64,000 nucleotides of DNA from an uncultured Pseudoteredinibacter sp. (GCF_947502065.1 NZ_CANMYE010000014.1:140-64139), one strand, 5' to 3'; positions 8,553 to 52,876 are shown, counted from the stretch's first letter. Program-made: numbers and translations. Notes: generated by a model not told the origin, from the letters alone.

Positions 8553-9845
8553 ATGAAAATAGCCATTTGGGGTAATGAATTAATCGCTTGGACAGCCGCC
8601 GCCTGTTTTGCCGAAATGGGTAACGAAGTTTTGTTTGTACCGCACTATAAAGGCGGTAGTGAAAACACTCGTAAAAGCAGCAGCAAAGATGCACCTGCAA
8701 ACGTAAAAGAAGAACCTGGTTTAATTAAGCAATTTGAAGAGCAAGAAAATAGCGGCCGCCTACAATTTAGCAATAGCAGCAATGCCAGCGAAGCCATACT
8801 GCATCTGCTTGCTTTTTTACCTAAGCAAATTGATCTGGCCAACTCCCTGTGTGAATTATTAGCCATTGATGAAAGCCGTCAACTGGTACTCATCAACACC
8901 AGCAACTTTGGTATTGGTGCCAGTGATAAGCTACAGGAGAAGTTTAAAGGCCAGCAGCAAGTTATGGCTTATATACCCGATCAACTGCCCGCTGGTAGCG
9001 CACTTAAAAACTTCAAACAGCCAGACCACTTGATCATTGGCTGCCAGCACGATTGGGCATTAATGCATATTCGCGCCTTATACCGCCCCTTTAGCCAAAA
9101 CCTAAGCAACTGGTTAATAATGAGCGCCAAAGAAGCGGAATATACCAAGTTCGCTATCACTGGCATGTTGGCACTGCGCCTAGCCTATATAAATGACCTA
9201 GCAAACTTAGCGGATGAGTTAGATGTCGATATCGATATTATTCGTGAAGCCATGGGCAGCGATGAGCGTATTGGCCAGCATTACTTAAACCCAGGCTGCG
9301 GCTTTGGCGGTGAACACTTCCCGCAATATATTGAAGGCCTAGCAGGCACTTTAAGCGAAGCAAGAAACTCCAGTTTGCTAAGCACAGTGCTAGAGCAAAA
9401 TGAAAAGCAAAAAGAGCTTCCCTTTAGAAAGCTGTGGCGCCATTATGACTGTGACCTACAAGGCAAAACCATCAGCATTTGGGGCCTAGCCTTTAAACCC
9501 GGCACCGCCAGCATAAGCAATGCACCCAGCTTAAAAATTATCGACGCCCTATTAAACCAAGGCTGCACAGTACAAGTGCACGATCCAATGGCGCTTGAAA
9601 ATATACAACAGCATTTCGAGCAGCATATATACCGTAATCAATTGCAACTATGCCAACATGAAATGCAAACCCTAGAAAACAGCGACGGACTACTACTACT
9701 CACCGAGTGGCCACAATACTCATCCCCTGATTATCAGGCTATGAGCGAATTGATGAACACTCAACTAATCATCGACGGCCGCAACCTATTCGACAAAGAA
9801 TTCCTCCAAGAACTAGGCTTCACTTACCAAGGCGTAGGCCGCTAA
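8553..9845 (+). CDS. ugd: UDP-glucose/GDP-mannose dehydrogenase family protein with divergent catalytic motifs
   Basis: AEYTKFA, DERIGQHYLNPGCGFGG, WGLAFKP and DGRNLFD motifs fit the family. GxGxxG and the catalytic GGxC are degenerate. Confidence 0.85.
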   Translation: MKIAIWGNELIAWTAAACFAEMGNEVLFVPHYKGGSENTRKSSSKDAPANVKEEPGLIKQFEEQENSGRLQFSNSSNASEAILHLLAFLPKQIDLANSLCELLAIDESRQLVLINTSNFGIGASDKLQEKFKGQQQVMAYIPDQLPAGSALKNFKQPDHLIIGCQHDWALMHIRALYRPFSQNLSNWLIMSAKEAEYTKFAITGMLALRLAYINDLANLADELDVDIDIIREAMGSDERIGQHYLNPGCGFGGEHFPQYIEGLAGTLSEARNSSLLSTVLEQNEKQKELPFRKLWRHYDCDLQGKTISIWGLAFKPGTASISNAPSLKIIDALLNQGCTVQVHDPMALENIQQHFEQHIYRNQLQLCQHEMQTLENSDGLLLLTEWPQYSSPDYQAMSELMNTQLIIDGRNLFDKEFLQELGFTYQGVGR

Positions 9846-9886
9846 GCATAAAACGAGGCCGAAAACGGCAAAGCCTCCCACCCAAC

Positions 9887-10054
9887 GGGGTCAGACCCTC
9901 ACAGGGTCTGACCCCAAACCCATGCACAATCTAAACGCCAAAGCCGATCCGAACCATCCAACGGGGTCAGACCCTCATAGGGTCTGACCCCAAACTCATG
10001 CACAATCTAAACGCCAAAGCCGATCCGGGGTCAGAACCCAAGGGTTCTGCCCCC
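9887..10054 (-). repeat. Tandem array of three REP palindromes (9887-9915, 9963-9991, 10027-10054)
   Basis: The first two are GGGGTCAGACCC-TCA(C/T)A-GGGTCTGACCCC in a near-identical 76-bp unit. The third is GGGGTCAGAACCC-AA-GGGTTCTGCCCCC. Confidence 0.92.
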
Positions 10055-10140
10055 TACCCCCTACACAATCCAAACGCCCCCACTCACAACCCCACCACAT
10101 AGTCTAAGCTTAAAAAACACCACCAAACAAAAAGCCAACC

Positions 10141-10707
10141 ATGCCCATAAAAACCATCCACCTCCCAAGCGACAGCCAACAACAAGTCCTCACCCAAGAA
10201 CTCGCTCGCTTCCAAAATTTCCCAGGCGCCCTAAACCTAGAACAACTAGACGGCTACTTCACCGCCCTACACCTAAGCCCCAGCGATTACGACATTGCCG
10301 ACTGGCTAGAACTAATATGGGGCGGCGGAGACCTCCCCGTAGGTGGCCACTTCTACAGCACCGATGAAATCCAACAGTTCTTCACCACAATGATTCAACA
10401 CTGGCACAACGTTCGCGCACGCTTAGAAGAAGATGAGCTATTTATGCCACTCACCTTTATCACCAGAAATGACGCCAGCTACTGGGCACAAGGCTTTTTA
10501 TTAGGAACAAAACTCTACGAAGAGACATGGCAGGAATACTGCGAAACAGATGACCAAGGCATAGAAACCGCATTACTGGCACAGGCCTACCTACACCACA
10601 AAGACAAAGATCTAAAAACTTACCAAACAGAAGAAGAACAACAAGAACACACCGCCGAACTAAACCAACAACTGATCATCACCCTAAACCACTTCATAAA
10701 AAATTAA
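10141..10707 (+). CDS. YecA/UPF0149-family protein (no C-terminal SEC-C motif)
   Basis: LEQLDGYFTAL..SP, WLELIWGG and WAQGFLLG segments resemble the UPF0149/YecA N-terminal domain. Confidence 0.7.
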   Translation: MPIKTIHLPSDSQQQVLTQELARFQNFPGALNLEQLDGYFTALHLSPSDYDIADWLELIWGGGDLPVGGHFYSTDEIQQFFTTMIQHWHNVRARLEEDELFMPLTFITRNDASYWAQGFLLGTKLYEETWQEYCETDDQGIETALLAQAYLHHKDKDLKTYQTEEEQQEHTAELNQQLIITLNHFIKN

Positions 10708-10720
10708 ACCAAAACAAAAA

Positions 10721-10748
10721 AGGGTCAGAACCCAAGGGTTCTGACCCC
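10721..10748 (-). repeat. REP palindrome, A-type
   Basis: AGGGTCAGAACCC-AA-GGGTTCTGACCCC followed by acaTCAAAGCCG, the reverse complement of the family flank. Confidence 0.9.
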
Positions 10749-10823
10749 ACATCAAAGCCGAAATATTTAAACCTCACCAGAAATCGCTACCAGGCACTAA
10801 ATTACGATCGCTGCTTATTAAAA

Positions 10824-11558
10824 CTATAAACGCTTAAACTTTTCCTTAATCAACAACCAAGCATACTGAGTATTGGTCATAAGATAACGCTTCCACATAC
10901 GTCCAGGCTCTTGGATAACCCTATAGAACCACTCTAAACCAGACCGCTGCATCCAAACCGGCGCCCTTCTAACCTTGCCAGCCACCACATCAAATGTGCC
11001 ACCCACACCCATTACAAAATTTACACCCAGCTCCTCACGCCATTTATTAATAAAATTCTCTTTCTTTGGAGAGGTAATTGCAACAAAGAGTAATTCTGCT
11101 CCAGAATCTTTTACTTTATTTACCAAAGATTCCTCATCATCCCAAAAGTAACCATGGTGGAACCCAGCAACCCTTAAATTTGGATGTTTTGCCTTCATTA
11201 TAGAAGCTGTTTTCTCAACAATTTCTTGCTGGGCTCCAAGGAAGAAGACAGAATACCCATCACGCTCTGCCATTGCATTCAACTCTAGAAACAAATCAAC
11301 GCCTGCAACTCTTTCTTCTACCTTATACCCCAGAAAACGAGCCCCCCAAACAACACCCATTCCGTCGATATTTATGATGTCGCACTCAGTTACAGAGCTA
11401 GCCAATTCCGAATCTTTGCGCATATTCACTAGCTTTGCCACATTGACCACGACATGCTGCGTGAACAAGCTATCCCGCAATCGGAGTGATATAGTATCGA
11501 CGGTTTCGACCATGGAGCCCGTATCCATAGGAGAACCCAAAAATTCAATTCTTTCCAT
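10824..11558 (-). CDS. WecB/TagA/CpsF (WecG-like) glycosyltransferase
   Basis: [37 protein letters not shown] and [17 protein letters not shown] motifs. Confidence 0.93.
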
Positions 11559-12570
11559 TTTCTACGTACCAATCTATTGCTTCCGACAACCCCTGCCTAA
11601 TTGAATGGGTTGGACGGTACCCCAAATCTCTTGAAATTTTCGAAATGTCAGCTCGAGAGTGGCGAACGTCGCCCTTCCTGAAATCTCTATAAGTTGGAGG
11701 TCTAATTTCATTAACCCCCTGGCTTCCAAGCTCCTCCGCGAGAAATCCATAAAGCTCGTTAAGTGAAGTTTGATCACTTAACGCAACGTTATACACTTCT
11801 GAGCCTGATATACCATACGTAGCTGCCAACAAGTTTGCCTGAACTGCATTCGCCACATAACAAAAATCGCGACTCGTCTCGCCATCACCATTTATGTAGA
11901 CTTCTTCGTTGTTGAGTATTGACTGTATCCATTTTGGAATAACTGCAGCATAAGCCCCGTTAGGATCTTGTCTCCGACCGAACACATTGAAATAACGCAA
12001 ACCACAGCTATCAAATCCATATGTTCGATGAAATACCGAAGCATATAGCTCGTTTACATATTTGGTTACAGCATATGGAGATAGTGGATTACCAATAACA
12101 TCTTCAACCTTAGGGAGCCCTGGGTGGTCACCATAAGTTGAACTACTCGCAGCATAAGTAAAGCTCTTCACTCTTGCATCTTTGGCTGCAATTAGCATAT
12201 TCAAAAAACCAGAAACATTAGTTTCGTTACTGGCAATGGGATCATCAATTGAACGGGGAACAGAACCTAAAGCTGCCTGGTGCAAGACAAAGTCAACCCC
12301 ACTGCATACTAATTTGCAAGATGACAAGTCTCTGATATCAGCCTCATAAAAAGTAAAATTAGACCAAAGTGTTTGGCCAACAACATCTTCAACTTCCTCT
12401 AGGTTCTTAATATGACCAGTAGAGAAGTTGTCAATCCCAATAACTTTTTGATTTAGTAAAAGCAACTGTTCCAATAAGCTAGACCCTATAAATCCAGCGA
12501 CTCCTGTAACCAGCCAAATTTTCGGCCTTTCCTTTAGCTCCATTTTTAATTTATCGAATTTCGTTATCAT
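11545..12570 (-). CDS. tviC: NAD-dependent UDP-GlcNAc(A) C4-epimerase (WbpP/TviC/Gne2 type)
   Basis: [27 protein letters not shown] and [20 protein letters not shown] motifs. Confidence 0.92.
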
Positions 12571-12575
12571 ATCAA

Positions 12576-13850
12576 TTACAACCTAATATCCGACTGAGTC
12601 GAGCCAAAAACGTACTTCAAGTCGCAAAAAACATGAATGTCTTTTCCAAACTCTCTTATATTAGCGCAACCAAGCTCATAGAACTCGTCATGAGCAACGG
12701 CAAGAATGATACCATCGTAGAAATCCGGCTTTGGAGATTCCACCAGGTCGATCGCATACTCGGACAAAGCTTCCTCCGCACTTACCCACGGATCGTATAC
12801 ATCTACGAAAATCCCGTATTCACGTAGCTCTGATATTACATCAATAACCTTAGTATTTCTGATGTCGGGACAGTTCTCCTTAAACGCTAACCCCATTAGG
12901 AGTATCTTTGCCCCTTCAACTTGAATCTTTTTCTTTATGAGCTGCTTAACGGTAAGTGAAGCAACATACCGTCCCATCCCATCATTTATCCTCCTACCAG
13001 CCAAGATCATTTCAGGATGGTAACCAATAGCCTGTGCCTTGTGAGTCAAATAATATGGGTCAACACCTATGCAATGCCCTCCCACGAGGCCCGGGCGGAA
13101 CGGGAGAAAATTCCATTTCGTACCTGCCGCTCTTAATACAGCCTCCGTATCTATATTCATCTTGTTAAAAATTAAGGCCAATTCATTAACCAACGCGATA
13201 TTCACATCCCGCTGAGTATTTTCAATAACTTTCGCAGCCTCAGCAACTCGAATACTTTCCGCTTTATACGTGCCTGCGCTTATAATTAATCGATAGACTT
13301 CATCAATAAAACTAGCTGCCATATCACATGAACCTGAGGTAACCTTCAGTATGTTAGTTACTCTGTGTTCTTTGTCACCAGGGTTAATTCGCTCGGGGCT
13401 ATATCCAGCATAGAAGTCTGTGTTAAGTTTAAGTCCCGAGACCTGCTCAACAATTGGGATACAAACCTCTTCAGTCGCACCAGGATACACGGTAGATTCA
13501 AACACAATGTAATCTCCAGGAGAAACAACCGCACCTATCGTTTCCGAAGCCTTTCTCAAAGGAGACAGATCGGGCGCCTTGTTATCATCAATAGGCGTAG
13601 GAACTGTGACTATATAAAAATTCGAAGATTTTATATCGCTCAATTTATCTGTGAGAGTAAGTTTAACTGAGCTCTTTAACTGCTCACTTGATACTTCCAA
13701 AGTCGAATCAAAGCCTTCATTCAGAGCTTCGATGCGATTTCTATTTACATCAAACCCAACGGTTGAAACTTTGCTACCAAACTCAACCGCCAATGGCAGC
13801 CCGACATACCCCAAGCCAATTACAGCCAATCTCAATTCATTAAGATCCAT
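12576..13850 (-). CDS. tviB: UDP-N-acetylhexosamine C6-dehydrogenase (TviB/WbpO/Gna type)
   Basis: [26 protein letters not shown] and the catalytic [16 protein letters not shown]. Confidence 0.93.
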
Positions 13851-14482
13851 CTCAAAATCCCCAAATCAAATATACAGTCAAATTTCAAAGGCCACTGAAA
13901 AAGTGTTAGGCATTAAAACTCATCGCCTATCGCAGCCAACTCAGAAAAACTTACAATATGATAGCTCCTCTCGGAAAAGCACATTAACTAACGCACCAAT
14001 AGTGGAGAAAAACAAACATTTTAAAAACCTTAAAGCAAGGTCAAACGAGAATTCGCCAATAAACCTTTACCTTTCACATTGGGTCAACCTCAACTATACA
14101 AAGCACATACTAATACCACCCAAGCCCTTGCCTCTGTCACACCCACCTCATCTTAACAAGTCAAAACTATGCTGCTTATTAATGATGATAAACAAACAAT
14201 CTAGACTGATTGCTCAGCGCTCAGGAGGTATCCAATGTTCTTTAAACACTAAAAACCAACAACCCGGAACGATCTGGCCTTCGTTTTTTAACTTCACCAC
14301 CCGTAGCCCACGAGGATCGAACCCTTGCCCAGATAATAAATCACCATACCCGCTTAACTGCACCTCTTGAAAGATGCACACAACCGAATCCAGAGACTTT
14401 AAGATTTTAACCGCCACAGTCCTGCGACTACTACGTCAAAGTTAGCTTTACACCTTAACCTACGCTGGTAGAGCATGAGATC

Positions 14483-15652
14483 CTAAATAAAATTTCTTTT
14501 CCTTCGATTATAGTAAGAAAATGAATAGTAAACCCAAGCCTGAGTCCAGCGGGTATAATCAATACGATTAGTGTACCACTTCGTTTTTTGATAAAAGAAC
14601 TTACGACTTCTCGGGCAAAACATCTGTTCTATTGATCGACTAATGACTCTATCTGCCAGTGCATAATCTTCTTTACCCCCGCCAACCCCCAACAAAGTAA
14701 TAATTGCCTGAGCAACAGAGTGCATATCCAAGGGATATACGTTGTCGTTATAGTATTTTGCATCAAATGAATCCGTAAAGAAATTTTCCCTATAATACTT
14801 GTAACCTAAGTCAATAGATTCAGTTAATTCTGATTGCTCTAAGCTAGAACGAATTAAAGACAGTGCCTCCAAATTGTACCCTGTGTGAAAACCGTCAATA
14901 AACTGATGATGACTACTACTGCCATAAACCCAAGATCCATTTTCGAGTTGATCTCTAACCGATTGACGGGCAACTAACAATGACAGGTCTCTATACCTAT
15001 CATTATTAGTTTCGCTCCCAACAAAAGCTACCCATGCCGCGCCCCAGAGGCTCGCATTATGAACAAATGCCGTTTCACCTGGTATATACGCGAAATAGTT
15101 TTTGGAGTCGTGGAAAGTGTAAAGTTTCTCAACAATAAAATTAGCAGAGCTAAATGCTTCTTGGATATAATCCGACCTATTCAATAACCTACCAAGTCTA
15201 TATAGTGCTTGAGATACATAGATAGTAGTTATCACATTGGGCTTTCCTTTTGGCACGTAAAATGCTCTAGCCTTCCAGTCAAAATGATAGCCCCAACAGG
15301 AATCTGGCCATATTTCTGGATCACTTTTCACAGACACCAACCAATCAGCCAATTCTACACAAACATCTCTAATATGGTGGTCTTTGACAGGCAAATCATT
15401 TTCAATCATCCCTAAAATATATAAAGCTATACCTTTGGGGTTCCTCATTTTAGGAATCAGCATCGCAGGCCGGAAGTTGATAGGGGATACTTTATGAAGT
15501 TGTGTCCAAAGCAAACCTAAGATCCCGTTTTTAAGCACTGGCATGCATGTAAATATCCTACTATTTAAGCCATCGAATGGATCGTGCCCGCAAAAGTTAG
15601 ACTCCCTAGACTTCTCAAGTATGGACTCAGTGATTTCATCGATAAAATGCAT
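14483..15652 (-). CDS. Conserved polysaccharide-cluster protein of unknown function (predicted alpha/alpha-toroid)
   Basis: 389 aa, in operon. GHDPFDGLNS, WGYHFDW, IDGFHTGY and WTQAW segments are typical of an uncharacterised family found in such clusters. Confidence 0.6.
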   Translation of the reverse strand: MHFIDEITESILEKSRESNFCGHDPFDGLNSRIFTCMPVLKNGILGLLWTQLHKVSPINFRPAMLIPKMRNPKGIALYILGMIENDLPVKDHHIRDVCVELADWLVSVKSDPEIWPDSCWGYHFDWKARAFYVPKGKPNVITTIYVSQALYRLGRLLNRSDYIQEAFSSANFIVEKLYTFHDSKNYFAYIPGETAFVHNASLWGAAWVAFVGSETNNDRYRDLSLLVARQSVRDQLENGSWVYGSSSHHQFIDGFHTGYNLEALSLIRSSLEQSELTESIDLGYKYYRENFFTDSFDAKYYNDNVYPLDMHSVAQAIITLLGVGGGKEDYALADRVISRSIEQMFCPRSRKFFYQKTKWYTNRIDYTRWTQAWVYYSFSYYNRRKRNFI

Positions 15653-15655
15653 CTG

Positions 15656-19233: not shown

Positions 19234-19237
19234 ATGA

Positions 19238-26326: not shown

Positions 26327-26352
26327 ATCTCATACCAGTATTACTCCGTACA

Positions 26353-28730: not shown

Positions 28731-28745
28731 TAAAGATCCCTCTAC

Positions 28746-30656
28746 TTAGTAGATATCCTTCGCAAAAAGCGTGAATGGCGTCTTAGCCAATATCTTCATA
28801 TCCAGCCACAGCGACCAGTTATTGATATAGGCCATATCAAACTCCACACGCTTTTCCATTTTATCCAGCGTTTCTGTTTCACCGCGGCAGCCGCTTACTT
28901 GGGCTAGGCCTGTGATGCCAGGCTTAATTCTGTGGCGCGCTAAATAGCGGTTTATTTTTTTGCTATAAAAGTGATTGTGCGCTACTGCGTGTGGGCGCGG
29001 GCCCACTAGGCTCATGCGGCCCTGCAATACATTTATTAGTTGGGGCAGCTCATCGATGGAAGTGCGGCGAATAAATTTACCTATGGGGGTTACTCTATCG
29101 TCGTTTTTGGTCGCTTGTTTTACTTCGCCGCCTGCCTCATCGTGTTGGCGCATGCTGCGGAACTTCCACACTTCAATAATGCTGCCATCCCAGCCGTGGC
29201 GCTGCTGCTTAAAAATTACTGGGCCTTTCGAGCTTAGTTTTACCAGTGCCGCTATGGTTAGCATGATGGGCGATAGCGCAATTAGGGCCAGTAATGCGAT
29301 GCTTCTATCCATTAAGTCTTTTAGCACGGTAGATAAGCGCGAGCTGGTTAGCGGGCTTTCGTTTAGTGATATCAGTGGTACGCCGCCCACTTCACGTACT
29401 GAGTGGTTTACTAGGTTTAGGGCAGAGATATCTGGTGCCCAGATGATGTCTACATTGGCATCCATTAGCTCGATGTTTAGTTTGCTTACTTGTTGGGATA
29501 GCAACATAGGCAGGGCTATGTAGATGCGTTTTATGCCGCAGGCTTCTACGATTTTTATTAGCGAGCTGATGTGGTTTATTTCTGTGTAGGCGGCCAGCTC
29601 TTCTAGTTTTTGTTTTTGGGCTTGGTTTTTGTTGTGGTTTACTACTAGGGATAGGCGGTTTGTGAATGAGGCTGGGGCCGCATTTTGATTAGTGGCTTCG
29701 ATTTTGGGGTCAGATCCCTTGGGATCTGACCCCGTGTGTGGCGTTGCTTCGCTCGCCTTGAACTCTGTGAAGGCGGGTTTGTTTAGGTAGGTGCTGCTTA
29801 GCTTGCCGATGATGGGGACGTTGGCTAGTTTGCGGTTTAGCTTTACGTTGAATAGGCGCTTGCGCTTTTGGGCGAAGACATCGAGTGTTTTTTCTTCGCC
29901 TAATTCTTGTGCGGCTGCGTATTCGCTTTCGGCTACGCTGGTTTGTAGCCCTGGCTGTAAATCCGGCTCGCCCTCTACTTTAATTGTAGCCACTACATTA
30001 TCGCGCACCCATGGGTTGCGGTTTAGGCTGTTTACTAATTGCTGGGCGATTGCTCCGCTACCGATAACTAATGTGGGTATAGAGTGGGAATGGTGAGCGC
30101 GATACATACGCGTTAAATAATGGAAGGCAAAGTAAGCAGCTATTTGGCCTGCCCATGCTGTTGCAAACCACACTAATAAAACTTCGCGCGAATAGGTGAC
30201 GCTGGTTTTGGTAATAAAACCCAGCACTGCCAACAAAGCGACTGTAGTAGCCCATGCAATACTAATGCGCAGCACACTATTAAAGTGCCCTGTCGATCGG
30301 CGGTGTATGCCTTGGCTGCTATATACAAAGGCAATGGCAAAGGCACTGAGCACCGCAAGCACACGATAGTCAGAGCTGATAGCACCCATCTTTATATAGG
30401 CAAGCGTGCAAAGGCTGGCAACTACCCAAGCGATATCGCAGGCCAGTTGTAAAAATGCCACTAGGTTTTGATTGTTTTTTAGCAGGCGCCGGCCTTGAGG
30501 CACATCTACCCCTGCCTGGGGCAATATTGCCTGCTGAATAGCTTCAGAATTTACGGCGGCGCCAAATGCCGGCTCGTTTAACCCTGCCTGCTGTATGTTG
30601 TTGTTTGCTATATGCTCGCCTGCCATATTGGCGGCGTGATTTCCCTGTGACTCCAT
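28746..30656 (-). CDS. wcaJ: Undecaprenyl-phosphate glucose phosphotransferase with a large internal insertion
   Basis: N-terminal TMs, LVIGSG, KFRSM, RRTSIDELPQL, MSLVGPRP and KPGITGLAQV. At 636 aa it carries an extra low-complexity segment containing a REP. Confidence 0.92.
   Translation of the reverse strand: MESQGNHAANMAGEHIANNNIQQAGLNEPAFGAAVNSEAIQQAILPQAGVDVPQGRRLLKNNQNLVAFLQLACDIAWVVASLCTLAYIKMGAISSDYRVLAVLSAFAIAFVYSSQGIHRRSTGHFNSVLRISIAWATTVALLAVLGFITKTSVTYSREVLLVWFATAWAGQIAAYFAFHYLTRMYRAHHSHSIPTLVIGSGAIAQQLVNSLNRNPWVRDNVVATIKVEGEPDLQPGLQTSVAESEYAAAQELGEEKTLDVFAQKRKRLFNVKLNRKLANVPIIGKLSSTYLNKPAFTEFKASEATPHTGSDPKGSDPKIEATNQNAAPASFTNRLSLVVNHNKNQAQKQKLEELAAYTEINHISSLIKIVEACGIKRIYIALPMLLSQQVSKLNIELMDANVDIIWAPDISALNLVNHSVREVGGVPLISLNESPLTSSRLSTVLKDLMDRSIALLALIALSPIMLTIAALVKLSSKGPVIFKQQRHGWDGSIIEVWKFRSMRQHDEAGGEVKQATKNDDRVTPIGKFIRRTSIDELPQLINVLQGRMSLVGPRPHAVAHNHFYSKKINRYLARHRIKPGITGLAQVSGCRGETETLDKMEKRVEFDMAYINNWSLWLDMKILAKTPFTLFAKDIY
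29706..29733 (+). repeat. REP palindrome, T-type, inside the wcaJ coding sequence
   Basis: GGCTTCGATTTT-GGGGTCAGATCCC-TT-GGGATCTGACCCC; translates in frame as (T)GSDPKGSDP(K). Confidence 0.95.
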
Positions 30657-31848
30657 GATCCGCTCCGAGCGTTGTCACATTCCTATTAATCCGTTACATC
30701 CTGGATTTATGTCAGCCGTCTGTGCAGCCTCTTACATCTATTTACTTCTACGCTTATAACCTACTGATCTTGCAATTGGCCGTTTTTATAAATGCTGGCA
30801 TATATAAAAACAGACAAAAAAATGCATCAAACATGAGCGCTAATCACCTTTAAGGCACTCTTGTTTATTTCATTGGTTTGGGGGCTTTATGTTTATCGAA
30901 GGCTTACTCTTATTCTTTCGCTAGAGCTAATAGCTTCGATTGATTGGAATAGTTGGTTGGCTTAGCGCGGCTTAATACCACTGTTTACCGCAGCGTTATG
31001 TCAGTAAATCACCGTCCCGGTGAACTTCATACCGACCGCCGCTTGTAAAGCCAACCCAGCAGTTTCTGGCCTCCCTTTAGCTCACTCTTTTTGGCGCGCT
31101 AATCTACCCTTTTAACTGCGAGAACACCCTATTTCCCTTGGCCTTTTCCAAACTCCGTCTTAGAAATCTCCCTGGTTCTTTATGTTGAACCTAATAAATT
31201 TGATCCCAAATACTTAGCTGGCAGAATCTTATCTTGCCACTATGTAATTTTTTTTACGGATTTAACTTTATTACTTTTTAACTATAAATCCTTAAGAATT
31301 GGCGAGCAGTCTAAGTAATTAAGTTGATGCGAGCAACATTATTAATGTGAGCTGAATCACGATTTTGTGGTTTTTGGTGTTTTAAGCGACAAAATGTCGA
31401 TAACTGGCTGGACAACTCGGTTTTTATAAGATTAAGGAATTTGCAGGCATTTTTATAATAACCAAAGGGATTTAATAAGGTTTGTATTTTTAGGAGTTAT
31501 ATAAACTTTAGAGCCAGAGTATTTGTCGTTTTTTCAGGGTTAGCTCGAAATAAGACTTTAAAACTAAACATTCCTATCAGTTAGCTTATACGACAGGCAC
31601 TTAAGTTTTGTCGCGTTAGTCGTTTTTTTAGGAAATTTTATTTACCTAAGTTCATTAGCTTTGTTAGAATTTTAAGTGGTCTTAGATTGCAGCGCCATTT
31701 GCGATTGTTAATGCTTCCTTAGAAGATGTACGGCTGACAGTACTAGAGGTATCCAAAGCACTTAAGCAACCTAGGCAACACGGCGCAAAACAGCATTGAA
31801 GCTGCAATGGAAGAAAAAGCGATTGAACGCATTCAAGGAGAAACCTCA

Positions 31849-32592
31849 ATGCCTAGTTTATTCAGAAAGGGCGTATCGCCCCTGCTGTTATCATTGCTAT
31901 TGCCTTTAATGGCCAATGCCGATGTAGCATCCGATTTATCCAATAATGTTCCTATTGCCGATGTACTGGCAAATGCTATTGCTGACGGCATGACTGCCGA
32001 AGAAGCCGTAGCCGTTATTGCGGCCAATGATGCCTCACAAGTAGCTGCCGCTGTAGCAGCGGCTGTAGCGGCTAACCCGGCGGCGGCTGTAAGCATTACC
32101 CAAGCGGCTATCGCTGCAGTGCCAGCCCAGGCGGCGGTGATTGCCTCAGCTGCAGTTAGTGCGGCGCCTAATAATGCACAAGCTATTACCAATGCAGCAG
32201 TAACCGCAGCACCTACCGCAGCTGAAGCGATTGTTGGCGCAGCGGTAACAGCGGCCCCACAAGTGGCAAATAATATTGTACAGGGTGCAACTCAAGCGCA
32301 ACCTGGCAACAACACTAACTTTGTTCAGGCCGCGATTGCTGCCAACCCAACGGTTGCAGGCCAAGTAACCGGTGCGACGGCGGCTGGTGGCCAGCAAGGT
32401 AATGCTGGTGACTCAGGTAATACTGGGAATACCGGTGATACCGGCAACACTGGTAATACGGGCAATACCGGAAATACCGGTAACGCAGGAACTGGTAATG
32501 CTGGAGCAGGCGGTGCTGGTGGCGCCGGTGGTTCTGGTGGTGCCGGCGGCGGTGGTGGCGGCGGCGGCGGCGGTGGTGCCAGCCCTGCCTAA
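31849..32592 (+). CDS. Secreted Ala-rich 15-aa-repeat / Gly-X-Y repeat protein
   Basis: AAGGAG RBS before ATG 31849, Sec signal ending ANA, seven 15-aa repeats, eleven Gly-X-Y triplets, poly-Gly tail, own terminator. Confidence 0.8.
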   Translation: MPSLFRKGVSPLLLSLLLPLMANADVASDLSNNVPIADVLANAIADGMTAEEAVAVIAANDASQVAAAVAAAVAANPAAAVSITQAAIAAVPAQAAVIASAAVSAAPNNAQAITNAAVTAAPTAAEAIVGAAVTAAPQVANNIVQGATQAQPGNNTNFVQAAIAANPTVAGQVTGATAAGGQQGNAGDSGNTGNTGDTGNTGNTGNTGNTGNAGTGNAGAGGAGGAGGSGGAGGGGGGGGGGGASPA

Positions 32593-32630
32593 GCTTTGTG
32601 TTTACGGCTTAACGTAAACATACATTACAT

Positions 32631-32663
32631 AATAAAGCGCCCTTTGCGGCGCTTTATTTTTGT
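32631..32663 (+). terminator. Rho-independent terminator
   Basis: AATAAAGCGCC-CTTTGC-GGCGCTTTATT followed by a T run. Confidence 0.8.
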
Positions 32664-32706
32664 CTGCAACACCCTGCCTTTATAAAAATAACTTTATGGA
32701 TGATGT

Positions 32707-34080
32707 ATGAGCACCCTGCTATCGCAATCAGGTAATGCCATTGTTAATAGATATTATTATTGGTTCTTGGGCTTACTCGCCTGGATGCCCCTACCCTTAG
32801 CCAGCAAACGTATTTGGGCGAGCATGTTGCTGTGCATTTGGGTATATGTTCTTAGCGCCTTTGTTATTCGTTTTTATATTGTTCATGCCTTGCAAGTACC
32901 TAAGCCACTTAGGGTAGCCTGGCCCGCCTTTTTACTGCTGGGGCTAAGTTTTAGCTGGCAGTTGTATTTAAGTATACAAGCCAATATTGATACCTTTTCG
33001 GCCTATTTAAGCAGCATGCTTGCGCTGGCTTATATATTAATATTCTTGCTGTGTTTTTTGCTAATCAATAGTACAGAGCGAATTAAAGCTTGTGCCTGGG
33101 TGTTGGTGCTTAGTGCGCTGTTTCAAGCCTTGTATGGCAGCTTTATGAATTTAAGCGGTATTGAGTATTTATTTTTTGTTCCGAAGGATACTTACTTTGG
33201 GGTTAATACCGGTACTTTTGTGAATCGCAATAGCCAAGCGGGTTATTTAGTGATGTGCAGCTCGATAGGTATTGGTTTGATGATATCTACCTTGGCCAGT
33301 ACGCCGGCTAAAAGTATTCGAGAGCATGGCCGGCGTTGGATGCAGGCGATTTTAAGTCGCAAAATTATTTTGCGTTTAAGCCTGGTGATGATTGTTGCTG
33401 GCCTTGTTATGACCCATTCGCGCATGGGTAATACCTCCTTTTTTGCGAGCTTGATGATTATTAGCCCGCTGGCTTTGATTCTTGGGCGTTTTAATAAGCG
33501 GGTAAAGAATAAAGGCTCATGGAAAGGTTTGTTTGTTTTACTGGCCAGCTTGGTAATTATTGATATTGCTGTGGTGGGTACTTTTTTTGGGGTAGATAAA
33601 GTTGCTCAACGTTTAGAAGCTACTGCGAGTGAAAAGGAAACTCGTGATGATGTCGTTAAAAATGCAGCCCCTTTACTTGATAAGGTTTATGTGACGGGTT
33701 TGGGGGGCGGTAGTTTTTATACGGCCTTTCCGGAATATCGTACCTATGAGACAGGGCGCTCTTTTTATAATTTAGCGCATAATGATTATCTGCAGTTTAT
33801 GTTGGAATTTGGTTTGATTGGCTTTTTGCCTTTGCTGTTGCTTTGTATGGTGGTTTTTTATTTGGGCTTGGCGACGCAGATGCGGCGTGGGGATCGATTG
33901 CTGCGAGGAATTGGTTTTGGAGTGGCCATGGCGGTTTTAGCGATGGGGATTCATGCTACGGTGGATTTTAACTTGCAGATGCCGGCGAATGCTGGGACGT
34001 TTATGGTGGTATTGGCGCTTGGGTTGATTGTTTATTATTTTCCGAATCAAGGGAAGAGGAAGCGTCGGGGATTGAGTTAG
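32707..34080 (+). CDS. O-antigen ligase-family (Wzy_C) membrane protein; possible O-oligosaccharyltransferase
   Basis: GTFVNRN, THSRMG, GLGGGSFY, LAHNDYLQF and IHATVDFNLQMPAN motifs; multiple TMs. Confidence 0.88.
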   Translation: MSTLLSQSGNAIVNRYYYWFLGLLAWMPLPLASKRIWASMLLCIWVYVLSAFVIRFYIVHALQVPKPLRVAWPAFLLLGLSFSWQLYLSIQANIDTFSAYLSSMLALAYILIFLLCFLLINSTERIKACAWVLVLSALFQALYGSFMNLSGIEYLFFVPKDTYFGVNTGTFVNRNSQAGYLVMCSSIGIGLMISTLASTPAKSIREHGRRWMQAILSRKIILRLSLVMIVAGLVMTHSRMGNTSFFASLMIISPLALILGRFNKRVKNKGSWKGLFVLLASLVIIDIAVVGTFFGVDKVAQRLEATASEKETRDDVVKNAAPLLDKVYVTGLGGGSFYTAFPEYRTYETGRSFYNLAHNDYLQFMLEFGLIGFLPLLLLCMVVFYLGLATQMRRGDRLLRGIGFGVAMAVLAMGIHATVDFNLQMPANAGTFMVVLALGLIVYYFPNQGKRKRRGLS

Positions 34081-34133
34081 GGTTTTTGGTGTTTGATGGG
34101 GTGGCTGGGGATTTTGGATCTCGGCTTCGATTT

Positions 34134-34242
34134 GGGGTCAGAACCTTTTGGGTTCTGACCCCGGGTTGGGTTTGGGCGCTATGGTTAGGGCATTTGGGAT
34201 CTCGGCTTCGAGGTGGGGTCAGAACCCTTGGGTTCTGACCCC
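34134..34242 (+). repeat. Two A-type REP palindromes (34134-34162, 34215-34242), 81 bp apart
   Basis: Both are preceded by TGGATC/GGGATC-TCGGCTTCGA; arms are GGGGTCAGAACC/GGTTCTGACCCC. Confidence 0.92.
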
Positions 34243-34250
34243 TTTTTGGT

Positions 34251-35891
34251 TTAGTTCTTTTTGCTGCGGCCGAAGGCGGTTACTGCGCAGCGGTGTGAAA
34301 GTAGATCTACGGTGCGGATGTTATAGTCGCCGCCGCTGGCTTCTAGGGTGGTTACCATTTGGTGGCTATTGGACTCTTGTTCTACTTTGTAAATTTGCTC
34401 TTGATTTAGTGGGTAGCGTACTGGATCGCCTTCGGCCATGCCTACTAGCAGATCAGCTTCGCAGCGCACTTTTGCACGGGTGATATCTGGCTCGCCCTGT
34501 AATGCGAAGCGCATGGTTAGTTCGCAAGCTTTTACTTCTTTATCGTCGGTGCGTTGGCAGGCTAGTAGTTCTTTTTCTAGGGTTAGCAGAACGGGTTGGC
34601 CTGTTGGGTTTGATTGTCTTTTTCTTGTTGTAGCGCTGCTTGGTTTTGCTTGTTCGGGCTCAGCAAGGGAAGCATTGCCAGCCAGGCGATCTTTAAAGCT
34701 TGGTGTTGTGGACGTTGGCGGCTCGGTTTTTGCGCTTTGTTTTTGCATTGGGTGGTTGCTGACGAGGTTATCTGGGTTTTCTTCTGGCCATGGGGTTTTG
34801 TTAGCGGGCTGGTTGGGCCTCGCTGCTGTTTTTGTGCTTGCTGTTATTTGGGTGCCGGTATTAGGGTCAGAACCGATTGGGTTCTGACCCTGGGTTTGGG
34901 CTTCTGCTTTTGTGTTTGCTGCGGTTTGGGTGCCGGTATTAGGGTCAGAACCGATTGGGTTCTGACCCTGGGTTTGGGCTGCTGCTTTTGTGCTTGCTGC
35001 GGTTTGGGTGCCGGCATTAGGGTCAGAACCGATTGGGTTCTGACCCTGGGTTTGGGCTGCTGCTTTTGTGGTTGCTGCGGTTTGGATGCCGGTTTTAGGG
35101 TTAGAACCGTTTAGGTTATGACCCTGGGTGTTTGTTGGCTTGGTGGCGGATTTGGGGTCGGAACCCTTGGGGTTCTGACCCCGGATTGGTTGAGGTTTTA
35201 CCTTTGTTTTTGCTAGGGCGTTTATTGTGGCCCAGTCTTTTTTTAGGAAGTGGGCAGCTACCCAACCGTGTAGGCGTTTGCCATCGTTGTTTGGATCTAT
35301 GGTGGTTATTCTGGCCCAGCCGTTATCTTTGTTATACACCATTACTGGGTGCTCAAATGGTATGGCGCTTAGGCGGATGTGTTTGGTGCTGGGGCCGCTG
35401 CGCACTTTTAGCGATTTAGTTTTCACTTGATGTGGTACGCCTTCACCTATGGGGTGAGGCTGTACTAACGCGGTGAATTCTGCAGCGTTGGTTTTTTTAT
35501 TTCTTTTTGGGCGGTTCGATACTGGGTCTACTTTAATATAGCGTGATGACATCCAGCCAGTGCGTTGTTGTTTGCCCTTGGGTAGGTTTTTATTGATAAA
35601 ACTGACTTCTGTCCACTCTCCTTGTACGCGTAAGCGAGTGACTACATGGCCTTTATTTAGCTGGCTAATGCCGGGGTAATCAGAGCCTGGGCCTTGGCGA
35701 ACTTTGACGAAGTTGGCGGTGATTACGCCGTATTCGGCCGCTTGGGATTTTGGGGTTGTTATTGGGGTGGTTAGTAGGGTGACTAGGGTTAGTGCCAGTA
35801 GGTAGAGTGGGGTCAGACCCCGTGGGGGTCTGACCCCGGTGGTGGTGTTGGTGAAGCTGTTTTTAAACTGGCCTATTTTTGCTGCTGGCAT
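34251..35891 (-). CDS. Secreted protein with two bacterial SH3 domains, a REP-derived repeat linker and an unknown C-terminal domain
   Basis: Signal-like N-terminus; VKVRQGPG..W and LKVRSGPS..NGWA SH3b motifs; (T/A)QGQNPIGSDP repeats; Cys-containing C-terminal domain. Confidence 0.8.
   Translation of the reverse strand: MPAAKIGQFKNSFTNTTTGVRPPRGLTPLYLLALTLVTLLTTPITTPKSQAAEYGVITANFVKVRQGPGSDYPGISQLNKGHVVTRLRVQGEWTEVSFINKNLPKGKQQRTGWMSSRYIKVDPVSNRPKRNKKTNAAEFTALVQPHPIGEGVPHQVKTKSLKVRSGPSTKHIRLSAIPFEHPVMVYNKDNGWARITTIDPNNDGKRLHGWVAAHFLKKDWATINALAKTKVKPQPIRGQNPKGSDPKSATKPTNTQGHNLNGSNPKTGIQTAATTKAAAQTQGQNPIGSDPNAGTQTAASTKAAAQTQGQNPIGSDPNTGTQTAANTKAEAQTQGQNPIGSDPNTGTQITASTKTAARPNQPANKTPWPEENPDNLVSNHPMQKQSAKTEPPTSTTPSFKDRLAGNASLAEPEQAKPSSATTRKRQSNPTGQPVLLTLEKELLACQRTDDKEVKACELTMRFALQGEPDITRAKVRCEADLLVGMAEGDPVRYPLNQEQIYKVEQESNSHQMVTTLEASGGDYNIRTVDLLSHRCAVTAFGRSKKN
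34863..35182 (+). repeat. Five REP-derived palindromes inside the SH3 gene (34863-34891, 34941-34969, 35019-35047, degenerate 35097-35125, 35154-35182)
   Basis: AGGGTCAGAACC-GATTG-GGTTCTGACCCT at exact 78-bp spacing, then 57 bp to the last copy. Confidence 0.93.
35809..35837. repeat. REP palindrome within the SH3 protein N-terminal signal region
   Basis: GGGGTCAGACCCC-GTG-GGGGTCTGACCCC; reads GVRPPRGLTP on the minus strand. Confidence 0.88.
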
Positions 35892-35931
35892 TTTGTTCCC
35901 TTGCCTTGTTTTGGTTTTTTGGCTTCGAGGT

Positions 35932-35960
35932 GGGGTCAGACCCTATGAGGGTCTGACCCC
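35932..35960 (+). repeat. REP palindrome, short type
   Basis: GGCTTCGAGGT-GGGGTCAGACCC-TATGA-GGGTCTGACCCC; exact reverse complement of the copy at 9963-9991. Confidence 0.92.
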
Positions 35961-35975
35961 GACTTTGCTTGCCTT

Positions 35976-37394
35976 TTATTCTTTTGTTCTGCCGTAGTCG
36001 TCTTGTAAGCGTACGATATCATCTTCGCCTAGGTATGAGCCCGATTGTACTTCAATCATTTCTAGGGGAATCATACCTGGGTTTTCAAGGCAGTGTATTA
36101 CACCGATTGGGATGTAGGTGGATTCGTTTTCGCTGAGTAGTAGTGTGTTGTCGCCGTTGGTTACCTTGGCTGTACCACTAACCACGATCCAATGCTCGGC
36201 GCGGTGGTGATGTTTTTGCAAGCTAAGTTTTGCACCTGGGTTTACGGTAATACGTTTTACTTGGTAGCGCTCGCCTGCGTCGATGGAATCGTATTTGCCC
36301 CATGGGCGATACACTTCGCGGTGCTGCACATGTTCGCTGCGGCCTTCTTTTTTTAGTGTGCTAACAATATCTTTTACTTCTTGCACTCGGCTGCGATCAG
36401 CGACTAACACAGCATCTTTGGTATCCACGATGACTAAGTCATCTACACCGATGGTGGCGATTAATTTTTCTTGAGCGATAACAAAGTTATTGTGACTGTC
36501 TTTATCTATCACGTCGCCTTGGTGAACATTGCCATCAGCATCTTTTTCTTTGATATCCCATAGGGCCGACCAGCTGCCGACATCGCTCCAACCAGCATCC
36601 AATGGTAATACTACCGCTTGATCGGTTTTTTCCATTACTGCGTAGTCGATGGAATCGTCTGGGCAGGCTTCGAAGGCTTCCTTGTTGATTCTTAAGAAGT
36701 CTAAATCGGCAGCAAGGTTTTGAGAGGCTTGCTCGCAGGCTTGGAATATATCCGGGCGATATTCTTTTAGCTCTTCTAGATAACGATCAGCGCGGAATAG
36801 GAACATACCGCTATTCCATAAGTATTCACCACTGGCTAGGTAGCTTTCTGCGGTGGCTAAATCTGGTTTTTCTACGAAGGCATCTACCTTAAAGGCATCG
36901 GCTTGGGCTTCGCCTTGGCGAATATAGCCATAACCTGTAGCGGGGCTATCGGGTACGATGCCGAAGGTGACTAGCTTGCCATCGCGGGCAATGGGTAAAG
37001 CCTGTTGTACGACGCGCTGGAACTCTTGAGTGTTTTCTATGACATGATCGGCCGCCAATACCAATAAAAGCTGGCTGCCCTCACCTTTCTGTTGAGCTCT
37101 AAAGGCTGCCAAGGCAATGGCTGGGGCGGTGTTGCGGCCAATGGGCTCTAATAAGATTTCGGCTTTGGTATCTAACTGGCGTAAGTGCTCGGCTACCAAA
37201 AAGCGGTGTTCTTCGTTGGTAATAATGGTGGTTTGGTGATCGGCCAAGCCCTCAAGGCGCTGCACGGTTTCTTGCAGCATGCTGCTGTCGCTATTGAGGT
37301 TTAGAAACTGCTTCGGATAGGCCGTGCGGGACATAGGCCACATGCGAGTACCCGAGCCACCAGCCATGATGACGATATTCAGATCTGCAGACAT
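35976..37394 (-). CDS. manC: Mannose-1-phosphate guanylyltransferase / mannose-6-phosphate isomerase
   Basis: [46 protein letters not shown] and [13 protein letters not shown] motifs. Confidence 0.95.
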
Positions 37395-37586
37395 TTTTCA
37401 ATCCTTTGTTTTATGTTGGTTATTTAATGGACTCTCGCTATTCCTTACACCCTGTTAGCGAGTTACTGCGTCCTGCATAGCACGGTAGAGGTTAGGCCTC
37501 TATTATTGCTGTTTAATTTAACATTTCGTGGGCCAAAGCCCAATGGCTGAAATTGATCAATTTTGGTGGCTAGATTTGGGGCGTAA

Positions 37587-37614
37587 GGGGTCAGATCCCG
37601 TGGGATCTGACCCC
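37587..37614 (+). repeat. REP palindrome, T-type
   Basis: GGGGTCAGATCCC-GT-GGGATCTGACCCC. Confidence 0.92.
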
Positions 37615-37712
37615 GGGTGTGGGCACGACGGTTGTGGCCTTGCTGTTTTCTATGGAGGAGCTGTGGATTCGTTTTAGTACTGGCTTTGAATTTTAGATCA
37701 CGGCTTCGACGT

Positions 37713-37740
37713 GGGGTCAGATCCCTTGGGATCTGACCCC
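37713..37740 (+). repeat. REP palindrome, T-type, 5 bp from the RAYT stop codon
   Basis: CGGCTTCGACGT-GGGGTCAGATCCC-TT-GGGATCTGACCCC. Confidence 0.93.
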
Positions 37741-37745
37741 GAGTG

Positions 37746-38327
37746 TTAGGTGGTTCGGATTGATTGGATTTGTTTGGGGTTTAACGCTTCTTGGAAGAGG
37801 TTTTGGTAGTTGGTTTGTTTTTGTTCTTTGGTATTTCCTAAAGAATCATATATGGAATGAGCTGTTGTAAGATTGTCACTTTTGCCAAATGCATTGCAGT
37901 TGTAGCTGGACCATTTGTATTGGCTAGGGTGGTTAACTAAGCCAGCTCGGACGGGGTTTAGCTCTACGTAACGATAAGCACACAACAGGTAACTATCGTG
38001 AGTAATTTGCTTTGAGCGGTAGCGGCCTTGCCAAAGTGTGCCACTGCGCTGGTATTTTTTGTTGTAGTAGTTGCTGTAGGCAATGCTTAGGGTTTGCATC
38101 ATTTTTGAGGGGGCGTTTGATTGCTCTGCTGTACAGAGTAGATGGATGTGATTACTCATGAACACCCAAACGTGGATGCTTACTTTGTAATGGCTGGACT
38201 TTGTTCTTAGTAGGCTTAGGTATTTTACGTGGTCTTGCTCGTCGTGGAAAACTTGTTGCCGATTGCAGCCGCGCTGGACGATATGGAGGGGAATGCCTGG
38301 GGTGGTTTGGCGGGGCTGTCTTGGCAT
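37746..38327 (-). mobile_element. REP-associated tyrosine transposase (RAYT, HUH/Y1 TnpA family)
   Basis: MPRQPR..PGIPLHIVQRG start, HUH motif SNHIHLL, LWQGRY, catalytic Tyr in RYVELNPVRAG, YKWSSY; flanked on both sides by palindromes. Confidence 0.92.
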
Positions 38328-38380
38328 TTTGGAGTTACCTTTGGGGGTTGGATTTGAGCTTTAGTTCTCGGCTTCGATAT

Positions 38381-38420
38381 GGGGTCAGATCCCTAGGGAT
38401 CTGACCCCGTTCTGACCCCG
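38381..38420 (+). repeat. REP palindrome, T-type, plus a duplicated right half-arm
   Basis: CTCGGCTTCGATAT-GGGGTCAGATCCC-TA-GGGATCTGACCCC, then GTTCTGACCCCG. Confidence 0.92.
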
Positions 38421-38428
38421 TTTTGGTT

Positions 38429-38575
38429 TTAGGTTTTGATTTCTGCTTTTTGTTTGGCTAGGCCATATTTTATGAAGGCGAAGTTAATGGTTTTGTAGGG
38501 GAAGATGGCTTTGCTTTTGTCTGAGCACTGAATGACGTGTAGTGGGATTATTTGGGGTCTTTGTTTGCTAGGCAT
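38429..38575 (-). pseudogene. Decayed 5' fragment of a second RAYT-like gene
   Basis: MPSKQRPQIIPLHVIQCSDKSKAIF aligns by eye with the RAYT start MPRQPRQTTPGIPLHIVQRGCNRQQVF; AAGAGAG precedes the ATG. Confidence 0.55.
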
Positions 38576-38699
38576 GGTGTTTTCTCTTTTTTTGAGGTTT
38601 GTTTTAGTTTGGTGATTTGTTTGATGGTAGGTATCAGCCAAGTGGGTGGTTTGTGATTTTGAGCTTGGGTAATTTGGTTTATGGCGTTGTGTTTTTGGT

Positions 38700-38907
38700 G
38701 GTGTTTTTGGTGTGGTTGTAGCTTTGGGATCTCGGCTTCGAGATGGGGTCAGATCCCGAGGGATCTGACCCCGGGTGTGTGGGTATTTGGGTTCTGCTTT
38801 TGTTGTTCTTTAAGGCGTTTTTTTTGGGTGGGTGTTTTTGGGGTGGTTGTAGCTTTGGGATCTTGGCTTCGATGTGGGGTCAGATCCCTTGGGATCTGAC
38901 CCCGGGT
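38700..38907 (+). repeat. Two 77-bp direct repeats (38700-38776, 38831-38907), each carrying a T-type REP (38745-38772, 38876-38903)
   Basis: GGTGTTTTTGG.GTGGTTGTAGCTTTGGGATCT.GGCTTCGA..TGGGGTCAGATCCC..GGGATCTGACCCCGGGT repeated at 131-bp offset. Confidence 0.92.
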
Positions 38908-38930
38908 TAGGCCGCGAATTTGATGGCTAT

Positions 38931-38956
38931 AAAAAAACCAGGCCGGGGCCTGGTTT
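38931..38956 (-). terminator. Rho-independent terminator of aceEF
   Basis: Minus strand reads AAACCAGGCC-CC-GGCCTGG then TTTTTTT. Confidence 0.85.
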
Positions 38957-52839: not shown

Positions 52840-52876
52840 AAACCTTCTACAATACTCGATAAGAAAGCCCTAAGCA

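Follow-up and report, generated by a model that had tools for sequence, protein, structure and literature searches.

Third-position strand skew around oriented REP elements in a Pseudoteredinibacter-like genome, and a tentative mutational origin for it

Why should genes that lie on the same strand of one chromosomal region carry third-position compositional skews of opposite sign? The question is raised by a 64-kb stretch of DNA (the window, by which the whole stretch is meant) from a Pseudoteredinibacter-like member of the Cellvibrionaceae, which contains repetitive extragenic palindrome (REP) elements together with the gene for a REP-associated tyrosine transposase (RAYT). The original prediction, made from the sequence of the window, was that skewed halos surround the REPs and that they result from deamination of a repeatedly exposed strand. 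In the analysis described here, the skew footprint itself is confirmed and proves stronger than first described: it is local, centered on the repeats and, as had been claimed, takes its sign from the orientation of the REPs rather than from the direction of the genes. We favor, with reservation and at slightly less than even confidence, the reading that a strand-specific mutational process, anchored at the REPs, left the halos as its footprint.

The REP hairpin has the consensus GGGGTCAGA(A/T/-)CCC...GGG(T/A/-)TCTGACCCC and carries, directly 5' of GGGGTCAGA, a conserved flank, GGCTTYGA-NN-T (family D2), which sets the orientation of each copy. In E. coli, REP orientation is set by a GTAG at the foot of the hairpin, of which the present flank is an analogue of different sequence; by this analogy, the flank would be the part recognized and bound by RAYT. 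The window contains 20 copies against a chance expectation of none, and dozens more occur in two related genomes; the family, as well as the cluster of M48 proteins considered below, is shared with a Cellvibrionaceae metagenome-assembled genome and with 'uncultured Pseudoteredinibacter sp. isolate 208'. Most copies are of the extragenic type (short, highly repeated palindromes), and several lie within open reading frames (ORFs). As in known REP/RAYT systems (REPtrons; E. coli TnpAREP; the REP doublets forming hairpins, or REPINs, of Pseudomonas), many short palindromes with a conserved 5' flank accompany a single HUH/Y1 transposase gene that has REPs on both sides. Unlike the inverted doublets of the E. 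coli bacterial interspersed mosaic elements (BIMEs) and the Pseudomonas REPINs, however, the REPs here are singlets or direct tandem arrays, each of a single orientation, and no inverted pairing of the BIME/REPIN kind was found among the arrays of the window and of the other genomes, so that each cluster has a net orientation. The copies and their orientations are those originally given (minus at 9887, 9963, 10027 and 10721, as well as one at 17; plus at 29706 and 34134-38901):

17..44, minus strand: REP at the edge of the window, whose halo is weak at best (-0.29, -0.40 versus about -0.2).
9887-9914, 9963-9990 and 10027-10053, minus strand: three direct-tandem REPs, family D6.
10721..10747, minus strand: REP 3' of yecA, the minus-strand flank of which reads TTCGGCTTTGATGT.
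29706..29733, plus strand: lone REP in the WcaJ linker, an insertion of about 110 aa, where the hairpin is translated in frame as GSDPKGSDP.
34134..34242, plus strand: two REPs with the conserved 5' flank GGATCTCGGCTTCGA-NN-T, family D2.
34863..35181, plus strand: five REP-derived hairpins within the SH3 ORF, three of them as a 78-bp tandem, families D3 and D4.
35809..35959, plus strand: two REPs between SH3 and manC.
37587..37739, plus strand: two REPs on the 3' side of the RAYT gene.
38381..38902, plus strand: three REPs upstream of RAYT, each with a G+T-rich 5' unit of about 70 nt, family D5.

Skew was calculated as G+T minus A+C at third codon positions in 300-bp bins, for which the binomial standard deviation is about 0.1. 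Relative to a background of about -0.2 (1-27 kb) or about 0 (39.6-45 kb and past 48.6 kb), four peaks stand far beyond the scatter, and all peaks together occupy about 13 of the 64 kb. The constant sign and modest amplitude of a replichore-type skew are not what is seen in the window, where peaks 1-7 kb wide depart from 0 or -0.2 and reach 0.9. The halos are the following:

Halo 1, 9300..11100: plus strand A+C-rich (minus strand G+T-rich), to -0.71, covering the 3' end of ugd, all of yecA and the 3' end of the WecG gene.
Halo 2, 28800..30000: plus strand G+T-rich within the minus-strand wcaJ-like gene, to +0.64.
Halo 3, 32700..39600: plus strand G+T-rich, to +0.74.
Halo 4, 45300..48300: the strongest, to +0.89, outside the range covered by the original prediction.
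Halo 5, 51900..52840: a weak halo in a metallophosphatase gene (+0.26, 0.14, 0.38), not present in P. isoporae.

The GC and TA components share equally in the skew, which is -0.7 to -0.86 beside minus REPs and +0.6 to +0.74 beside plus REPs. Flanked by REPs at both ends, yecA has a U-shaped profile (-0.85, -0.65, -0.40, -0.60, -0.86); halo 2 climbs from the 5' side of its REP (0.16, 0.34, 0.64) and falls on the 3' side (0.50, 0.10). Across halo 3, the skew rises from 0.18 to 0.69 in the ligase gene, amounts to 0.4-0.74 in SH3, 0.2-0.46 in manC and 0.32-0.47 in the RAYT gene, and falls from 0.37 to 0.14 at the 3' end of E2. Halo 4 comprises the plus-strand gene of an M48/TPR peptidase (0.22 to 0.89), of whose last 150 codons 139 have G or T at the third position (P = 4e-28), and the minus-strand OmpR-TPR gene (0.32, 0.60, 0.54, 0.22). 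The codon counts on which the original prediction was built were reproduced: 26 of the last 27 sense codons of ugd and 37 of the first 39 post-ATG codons of yecA end in A or C (binomial P 2e-6 and 3e-8, respectively), and among the last 39 ligase codons G or T is the final base in 35 (P 4e-7), tested against the local third-position background (0.545 for A/C, 0.514 for G/T). The accompanying statement that the skew fades within several hundred bp does not hold on the 5' side of the repeats, where the distance is about 1.4 kb (ligase, M48); in the ligase, M48 and wcaJ halos, the skew climbs over 0.9-1.4 kb on the 5' side and drops within 0.3-0.6 kb beyond. The most skewed sequence of all is that of the non-coding spacers.

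Within the window, the sign of the skew matches REP orientation in all four REP zones. The same relation was examined at 39 loci from two other REP-bearing genomes, with third-position sites oriented by the nearest REP. On the 5' (flank) side, the skew is +0.37 at 0-300 bp, declines through 0.20, 0.11, 0.07 and 0.07 in the succeeding intervals and has vanished by about 1.8 kb; on the 3' side, it starts at +0.20 (0-300 bp) and passes through 0.06 to 0. The halo is therefore asymmetric, extending for about 1-1.5 kb on the 5' side of a REP and for about 0.3 kb on its 3' side. Counted per cluster, the skew is positive in 32/36 cases on the 5' side (P = 2e-6) and 29/41 on the 3' side. In agreement with the skew-orientation correlation that the original prediction had called for, REP orientation is a predictor of near-field skew (r = 0.58, P = 2e-4) that does not depend on the skew beyond 1.5 kb; in the fitted relation, near = 0.13 x orientation + 0.48 x far, orientation and far-field skew are uncorrelated. 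A metagenome scan for additional REP loci returned only chance matches without a hairpin, which served as a negative control, and around such chance matches to the flank motif in unrelated taxa the skew is about 0.

The gene names used in the original prediction hold, and the genes concerned are arranged as follows:

8553-9845, plus strand: ugd.
10141-10707, plus strand: UPF0149/yecA.
28746-30656, minus strand: WcaJ-like gene.
32707-34080, plus strand: Wzy_C ligase.
34251-35891, minus strand: SH3.
35976-37394, minus strand: manC.
37746-38327, minus strand: Y1_Tnp/RAYT, 193 aa, with HIH (the HUH motif) and the tyrosine motif YRYVELNP.

The RAYT assignment is supported by a Pfam Y1_Tnp match (2.3e-16), as well as by a score of 76 bits against NCBIfam REP_Tyr_transpos, slightly below the cut-off of 80; a PDB sequence search with the protein returned no relative. 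Plus-strand genes bear either sign of skew (ugd and yecA versus ligase and M48), and minus-strand genes in the plus-oriented zone bear the plus sign. Transcription asymmetry, for instance through R-loops at terminator hairpins, resembles the halos in that the non-template strand gains G+T, and most genes on the 5' side of REPs are indeed co-oriented with them. It differs in that genes anti-oriented to the REP are as skewed as co-oriented ones (0.44 versus 0.33), and in that ugd and yecA are skewed in the direction opposite to that predicted, so that transcription of the genes is not the cause. Of the original statement that neither transcription nor replichore accounts for the switch in sign, the first part stands, whereas the second had been assumed rather than shown. 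The gene arrangement around the REPs at the loci of the two genomes (L001-L059) has a bias of its own: within 300 bp, the gene on the 3' side of a REP is anti-oriented at about 93% of third-position sites and the gene on the 5' side co-oriented at about 66%, so a REP just upstream of the start of a co-oriented gene is rare.

Are the halos a property of these loci or of the REPs within them? The same halos are found at syntenic loci of four other assemblies that are 91-95% identical to the window, namely CANMSS01 (L066, L005, L058), JAOXRT01 (L073, L027, L057), a JGI metagenome contig (L067) and an ENA metagenome contig (L068). In REP-free relatives with the same gene order, i.e. P. isoporae (L065, L072; M48 amino-acid identity 91%), L061 (87%) and L062 (77%), no halo is found in M48, E2, ugd, yecA, SH3 or manC. 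Taken together, halos are shared by L066-L068 and L073, are weaker in L069, which has one REP, and are absent from P. isoporae, L061, L062 and L070. Within wcaJ, a 77%-identical orthologue with a REP has a weaker halo and a 62%-identical orthologue without one has none. Identical skew in REP-free orthologues, named in the original prediction as a refuting result, was thus looked for and not found, and the observation stands. In P. isoporae (L072), SH3-manC directly follows ugd-yecA, which identifies the 23-kb low-GC polysaccharide cluster between them (10800-34100; WecG ... WcaJ ... O-antigen ligase) as an insertion there, and the borders of this island carry REPs of opposite orientation and halos of opposite sign.

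A sequencing or assembly artefact, including strand-specific error of the nanopore type, was considered and rejected. The contig names of CANMSS01 and JAOXRT01 are of the SPAdes and MEGAHIT type, respectively, the skewed M48 allele is present in Logan contigs of four unrelated metagenomes at 93-99% identity, and only synonymous sites are affected; halos that recur under these circumstances in short-read-type assemblies are not nanopore error. Such an artefact, the acquisition of already skewed foreign DNA, and ordinary replication or transcription asymmetry are together hardly credible as the origin of the halos. A G+T excess is the usual signature of a leading strand, and the four-fold GC skew is negative in the left third of the window regardless of gene strand, both of which would suit ordinary asymmetry. 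The halos are, however, local peaks of 0.9 across core genes on a background of 0-0.2, they have the same sign in both gene directions, syntenic orthologues are unskewed, five or more independent assemblies agree, and chance matches to the flank motif have a skew of about 0.

The changes that produced the skew were measured in M48. At four-fold sites of codons 250-484, the composition T22 C38 G27 A16 of REP-free orthologues has become T50 C7 G43 A1, C/T-ending two-fold codons, formerly split about 1:1, now comprise 48 T : 6 C, and A/G-ending codons, in which A formerly exceeded G, now number 54 G : 7 A. Among 79 changes inferred for the window lineage in codons 250-485, 27 are C>T and 27 are A>G; these two transitions (54/79) dominate on the predicted strand, as originally proposed. 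When halos in which the G+T-rich strand, S, is the coding strand and those in which it serves as template are pooled separately, 53-67% of C sites on S prove to have been converted to T and 54-72% of A sites to G, with parity in both gene orientations and conversion still far from saturated. Differences at first and second positions of M48 that are fixed between REP-bearing and REP-free clades are mostly synonymous (Leu CTN>TTR), and first- and second-position identity to the orthologues is unreduced. The codon usage of neighboring genes has therefore been reshaped, as foreseen, with almost no amino-acid change, which argues for gradual action under purifying selection and not for a single hypermutation event.

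This spectrum bears directly on the chemistry first proposed, in which the REP-bearing strand is repeatedly single-stranded and undergoes spontaneous or nitrosative deamination (C>U, A>hypoxanthine). Spontaneous hydrolytic deamination of single-stranded DNA (ssDNA) is far faster at C than at A. From deamination one would expect the observed polarity, both transitions and a gradient resembling that in vertebrate mitochondrial DNA (mtDNA), and RAYT biology does require ssDNA. The hydrolytic preference for C should, however, appear at these unsaturated levels, where A>G is instead as complete as C>T; a context signature is absent, as is any present bias in three lineages (see below). We regard the deamination reading as unlikely, the parity of the two transitions pointing instead to a single strand-specific type of mispair made during gap filling or resynthesis. 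In the vertebrate mitochondrial heavy/light-strand asymmetry, graded by the time spent single-stranded, one strand likewise undergoes C>T and A>G changes, most strongly at synonymous sites and with a distance gradient from a fixed point; it differs from the many small, hairpin-anchored foci in a bacterial chromosome, which are off equilibrium. An enzymatic cytosine deaminase (APOBEC/AID/DddA/SsdA-like) was likewise rejected as a candidate, as A is depleted like C and the dinucleotide context is that of the background. Kataegis and the clusters left by AID, APOBEC or bacterial deaminase toxins resemble the halos as strand-coordinated transitions over about 1 kb beside a lesion or processing site, but they affect C only, in a specific context, and arise as single events with non-synonymous changes, whereas in the halos A>G equals C>T, context is lacking and the changes are nearly purely synonymous.

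Selection on S is a further alternative, either to avoid RAYT cleavage sites (C^T in E. coli) or to provide the G+T-rich 3' tails preferred by RecA next to a swappable polysaccharide locus. TnpAREP cuts flanking ssDNA at CT over >400 nt (PMC3333891), and the mirror-image polarity at the island borders would suit the 3' tails of an incoming fragment. In the halos, however, dinucleotide observed/expected ratios equal those of the background (1.04 for CT), which speaks neither for cleavage-site avoidance nor for a deaminase-type context. Selection is made very improbable by this, as well as by the equal depletion of A, the occurrence of halos genome-wide rather than at the island only, and the position of the non-coding spacers as the most skewed sequence.

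How, then, might a REP give rise to such a track? The strand S is, for the proposed mechanism, that carrying 5'-GGCTTYGA-NN-T-hairpin-3' and, by analogy with E. coli REPs, the strand that RAYT would bind when it is single-stranded. The E. coli enzyme TnpAREP, which binds single-stranded REPs in one orientation, acts on ssDNA only, requires the REP together with its 5' flank, and cuts the same strand at many sites upstream and downstream over >400 nt, and its IS200/IS605 relatives operate on the template of the lagging strand (PMC3333891). Synthesis over the 5' flank could be blocked by a hairpin on S that is extruded or bound by RAYT, leaving a post-replicative gap that would be filled with uncorrected A.C mispairs, S being the template. 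Alternatively, a RAYT nick on S could lead to its degradation and resynthesis with G.T mispairs, S being the new strand. Repetition of either cycle outside normal mismatch correction would fix a single class of transition mispair in one direction; purifying selection has removed almost all amino-acid changes. The equality of A>G and C>T, and the fact that the skew is strongest where a polymerase copying S would arrive past the hairpin, favor these gap-filling and nick-resynthesis scenarios. In mismatch-repair-defective E. coli, transitions are about 2.4-fold commoner with A and C on the lagging-strand template, both equally (bioRxiv 10.1101/346874). The process would have operated in the ancestor that the REP-bearing strains share and would now be weak or switched off in at least three descendant lineages, with their halos relaxing.

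This timing derives from a comparison of the window (34-57 kb) with L066-L068. The third positions of P. isoporae are saturated (about 43% identity), which makes it unsuitable for polarizing changes in the window lineage, and singletons among the four strains, which are 5-8% apart, were used instead. In the closest metagenome (X1, about 99% identical), coverage is too thin for recent polymorphism to be polarized. Third-position singletons in the halos, to versus from G/T, and the corresponding per-site rate ratios are:

L066: 23 versus 80; rate ratio 0.9.
L067: 18 versus 59; rate ratio 0.9.
L068: 13 versus 31; rate ratio 1.3.
Window branch: 49 versus 58; rate ratio 2.5 (P = 2e-6).

Stationarity, which implies equal counts, is rejected in L066, L067 and L068 (P 0.01 to 1e-8), whereas the window branch is balanced, as are background third-position counts in every lineage. 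In L066-L068, the bias has disappeared and halo decay is under way. A mutator in steady state, as the original prediction implied, is not compatible with symmetric rates and decaying halos in three of four related lineages; the process is ancestral or episodic. It possibly persists in the window's own lineage, for which it should be noted that the distance-based tree roots near, but off, the window branch, so that some changes there may be mis-polarized.

Several observations weigh against a mutational process anchored at the REPs. Per-site rates are symmetric in L066-L068 although L066 and L067 retain a full-length RAYT ORF, so that a REP plus RAYT alone is insufficient. A bias of the 2.4-fold E. 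coli type would give an equilibrium skew of about 0.4, not 0.9. Eight of 36 clusters depart from the sign of their REP orientation, and the nicks, gaps and stalling at REPs are postulated from sequence patterns. As to the direction of replication through the window, neither KOPS-like GGGNAGGG (5 versus 1, with none in the right half) nor Chi nor strand-split four-fold skews gave a firm indication. Also significant is the position of the strongest halo, that of M48, which in four strains has no canonical REP but another hairpin element instead; the weak metallophosphatase halo likewise adjoins a hairpin element of this second type and no canonical REP; and in L066 the M48 halo stops at an ordinary terminator, past which there is no halo, an arrangement consistent with loss of the focal element. 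The two elements of the window are:

46790..46935, plus strand: multi-copy hairpin element of the second type, on which halo 4 is focused, with a conserved core and a strain-specific 18-bp stem.
52884..52985, plus strand: related long-stem hairpin element 3' of the metallophosphatase gene, also present in L066 (14075-14255).

The second element is also found in L067 (11540-11680) and L068 (11520-11650). Its outer flanks (GGCCGATTGCAG ... CTACAATCTAC) are conserved, as is a core of about 64 nt that contains CTCGACTTCG, similar to the REP flank CTCGGCTTCGA, whereas the 18-bp stem between flanks and core is wholly different in each strain at the same locus and complementary every time. Its read depth is 5-6x that of its flanks in four metagenomes, and an Rfam search with the element gave no match, even at E <= 1. 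The intergenic spot beside these halos is itself hypervariable, with unrelated sequence in strains whose flanking genes are 93-95% identical. The long-stem element is longer in L066-L068 and has its core on the opposite strand there, the sign of the adjacent weak halo being unchanged.

The association of the M48 and metallophosphatase halos with a different hairpin element leaves room for a model of common cause, or reversed causality, in which spots that are prone to ssDNA or recombination on one strand acquire skew and attract REPs or other hairpin elements of matching orientation. The hypervariable intergenic spot is in line with this, as are the dependence of near-field on far-field skew (coefficient 0.48) and the opposite-sign REP zones flanking a polysaccharide island that is absent at this position in P. 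isoporae. It is nevertheless improbable, given that the skew peaks at the REPs on a scale of 100-300 bp (as in the yecA U-shape), that the 5'/3' asymmetry is defined by the REP, and that orthologous loci free of repeats are unskewed.

Strand-asymmetric transition bias is already known from replication, transcription and mitochondria. With replication asymmetry, the halos share the direction of G+T enrichment and the same two transitions at equal weight, and they differ from it in their extent (0.3-1.5 kb around an element), their third-position amplitude of up to 0.9 and a sign given by element orientation. What appears to be new is a bias that is anchored at repeats, set by their orientation, kilobase-scale, near-saturated, and on or off between sister lineages; no description of compositional or mutational halos linked to REPs was found in the literature searched, which covered REP/RAYT/REPIN in relation to skew, strand asymmetry, mutation bias and the lagging strand, as well as the genus. 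That the RAYT-REP pair constitutes a natural, orientation-programmed local mutator, which lays down a transition track of about 1 kb 5' of the REP and is switched on and off between close lineages, is a bolder and rather doubtful proposition. If it were true, REP arrays would drive bursts of synonymous, occasionally adaptive, change in neighboring genes, the footprints of which could be dated. If the favored reading of a REP-anchored mutational process is correct, REPs would gain a genomic effect beyond mRNA stability and termination, codon usage in about 20% of the 64-kb window would reflect local mutational history rather than selection or genome-wide bias, and analyses of codon usage, horizontal gene transfer and dN/dS would be affected. 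The equality of C>T and A>G would then offer a natural setting for telling deamination apart from strand-specific misincorporation as the source of bacterial strand asymmetry, a long-standing question, and the on/off difference between sister lineages would be a handle on the timing of RAYT activity.

Some further features of the window deserve mention. An Rfam scan of all 64 kb returned no family at its gathering score. The REP hairpins within the SH3 gene (34863-35181) are in frame and are translated as GQNPIGSDPN... repeats comprising three 26-aa units, which sit in a T/K/P/Q/N-rich extension; the protein has 546 aa here versus 266 aa in P. isoporae. Between positions 1 and 28000, the four-fold GC skew is strongly negative on both gene strands (-0.49 in plus-strand genes, -0.21 in minus-strand genes), while past 39 kb it depends on gene strand only, a shift that may reflect a replichore boundary, a compositional boundary or foreign DNA. 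Finally, the pair formed by the OmpR-TPR regulator and a methyltransferase between M48 and slyX (47042-50312) is a presence/absence polymorphism: the window, L061, L067 and L068 have the pair, L062, L064, L065 and L066 lack it, and in L067 the regulator is broken into two ORFs.

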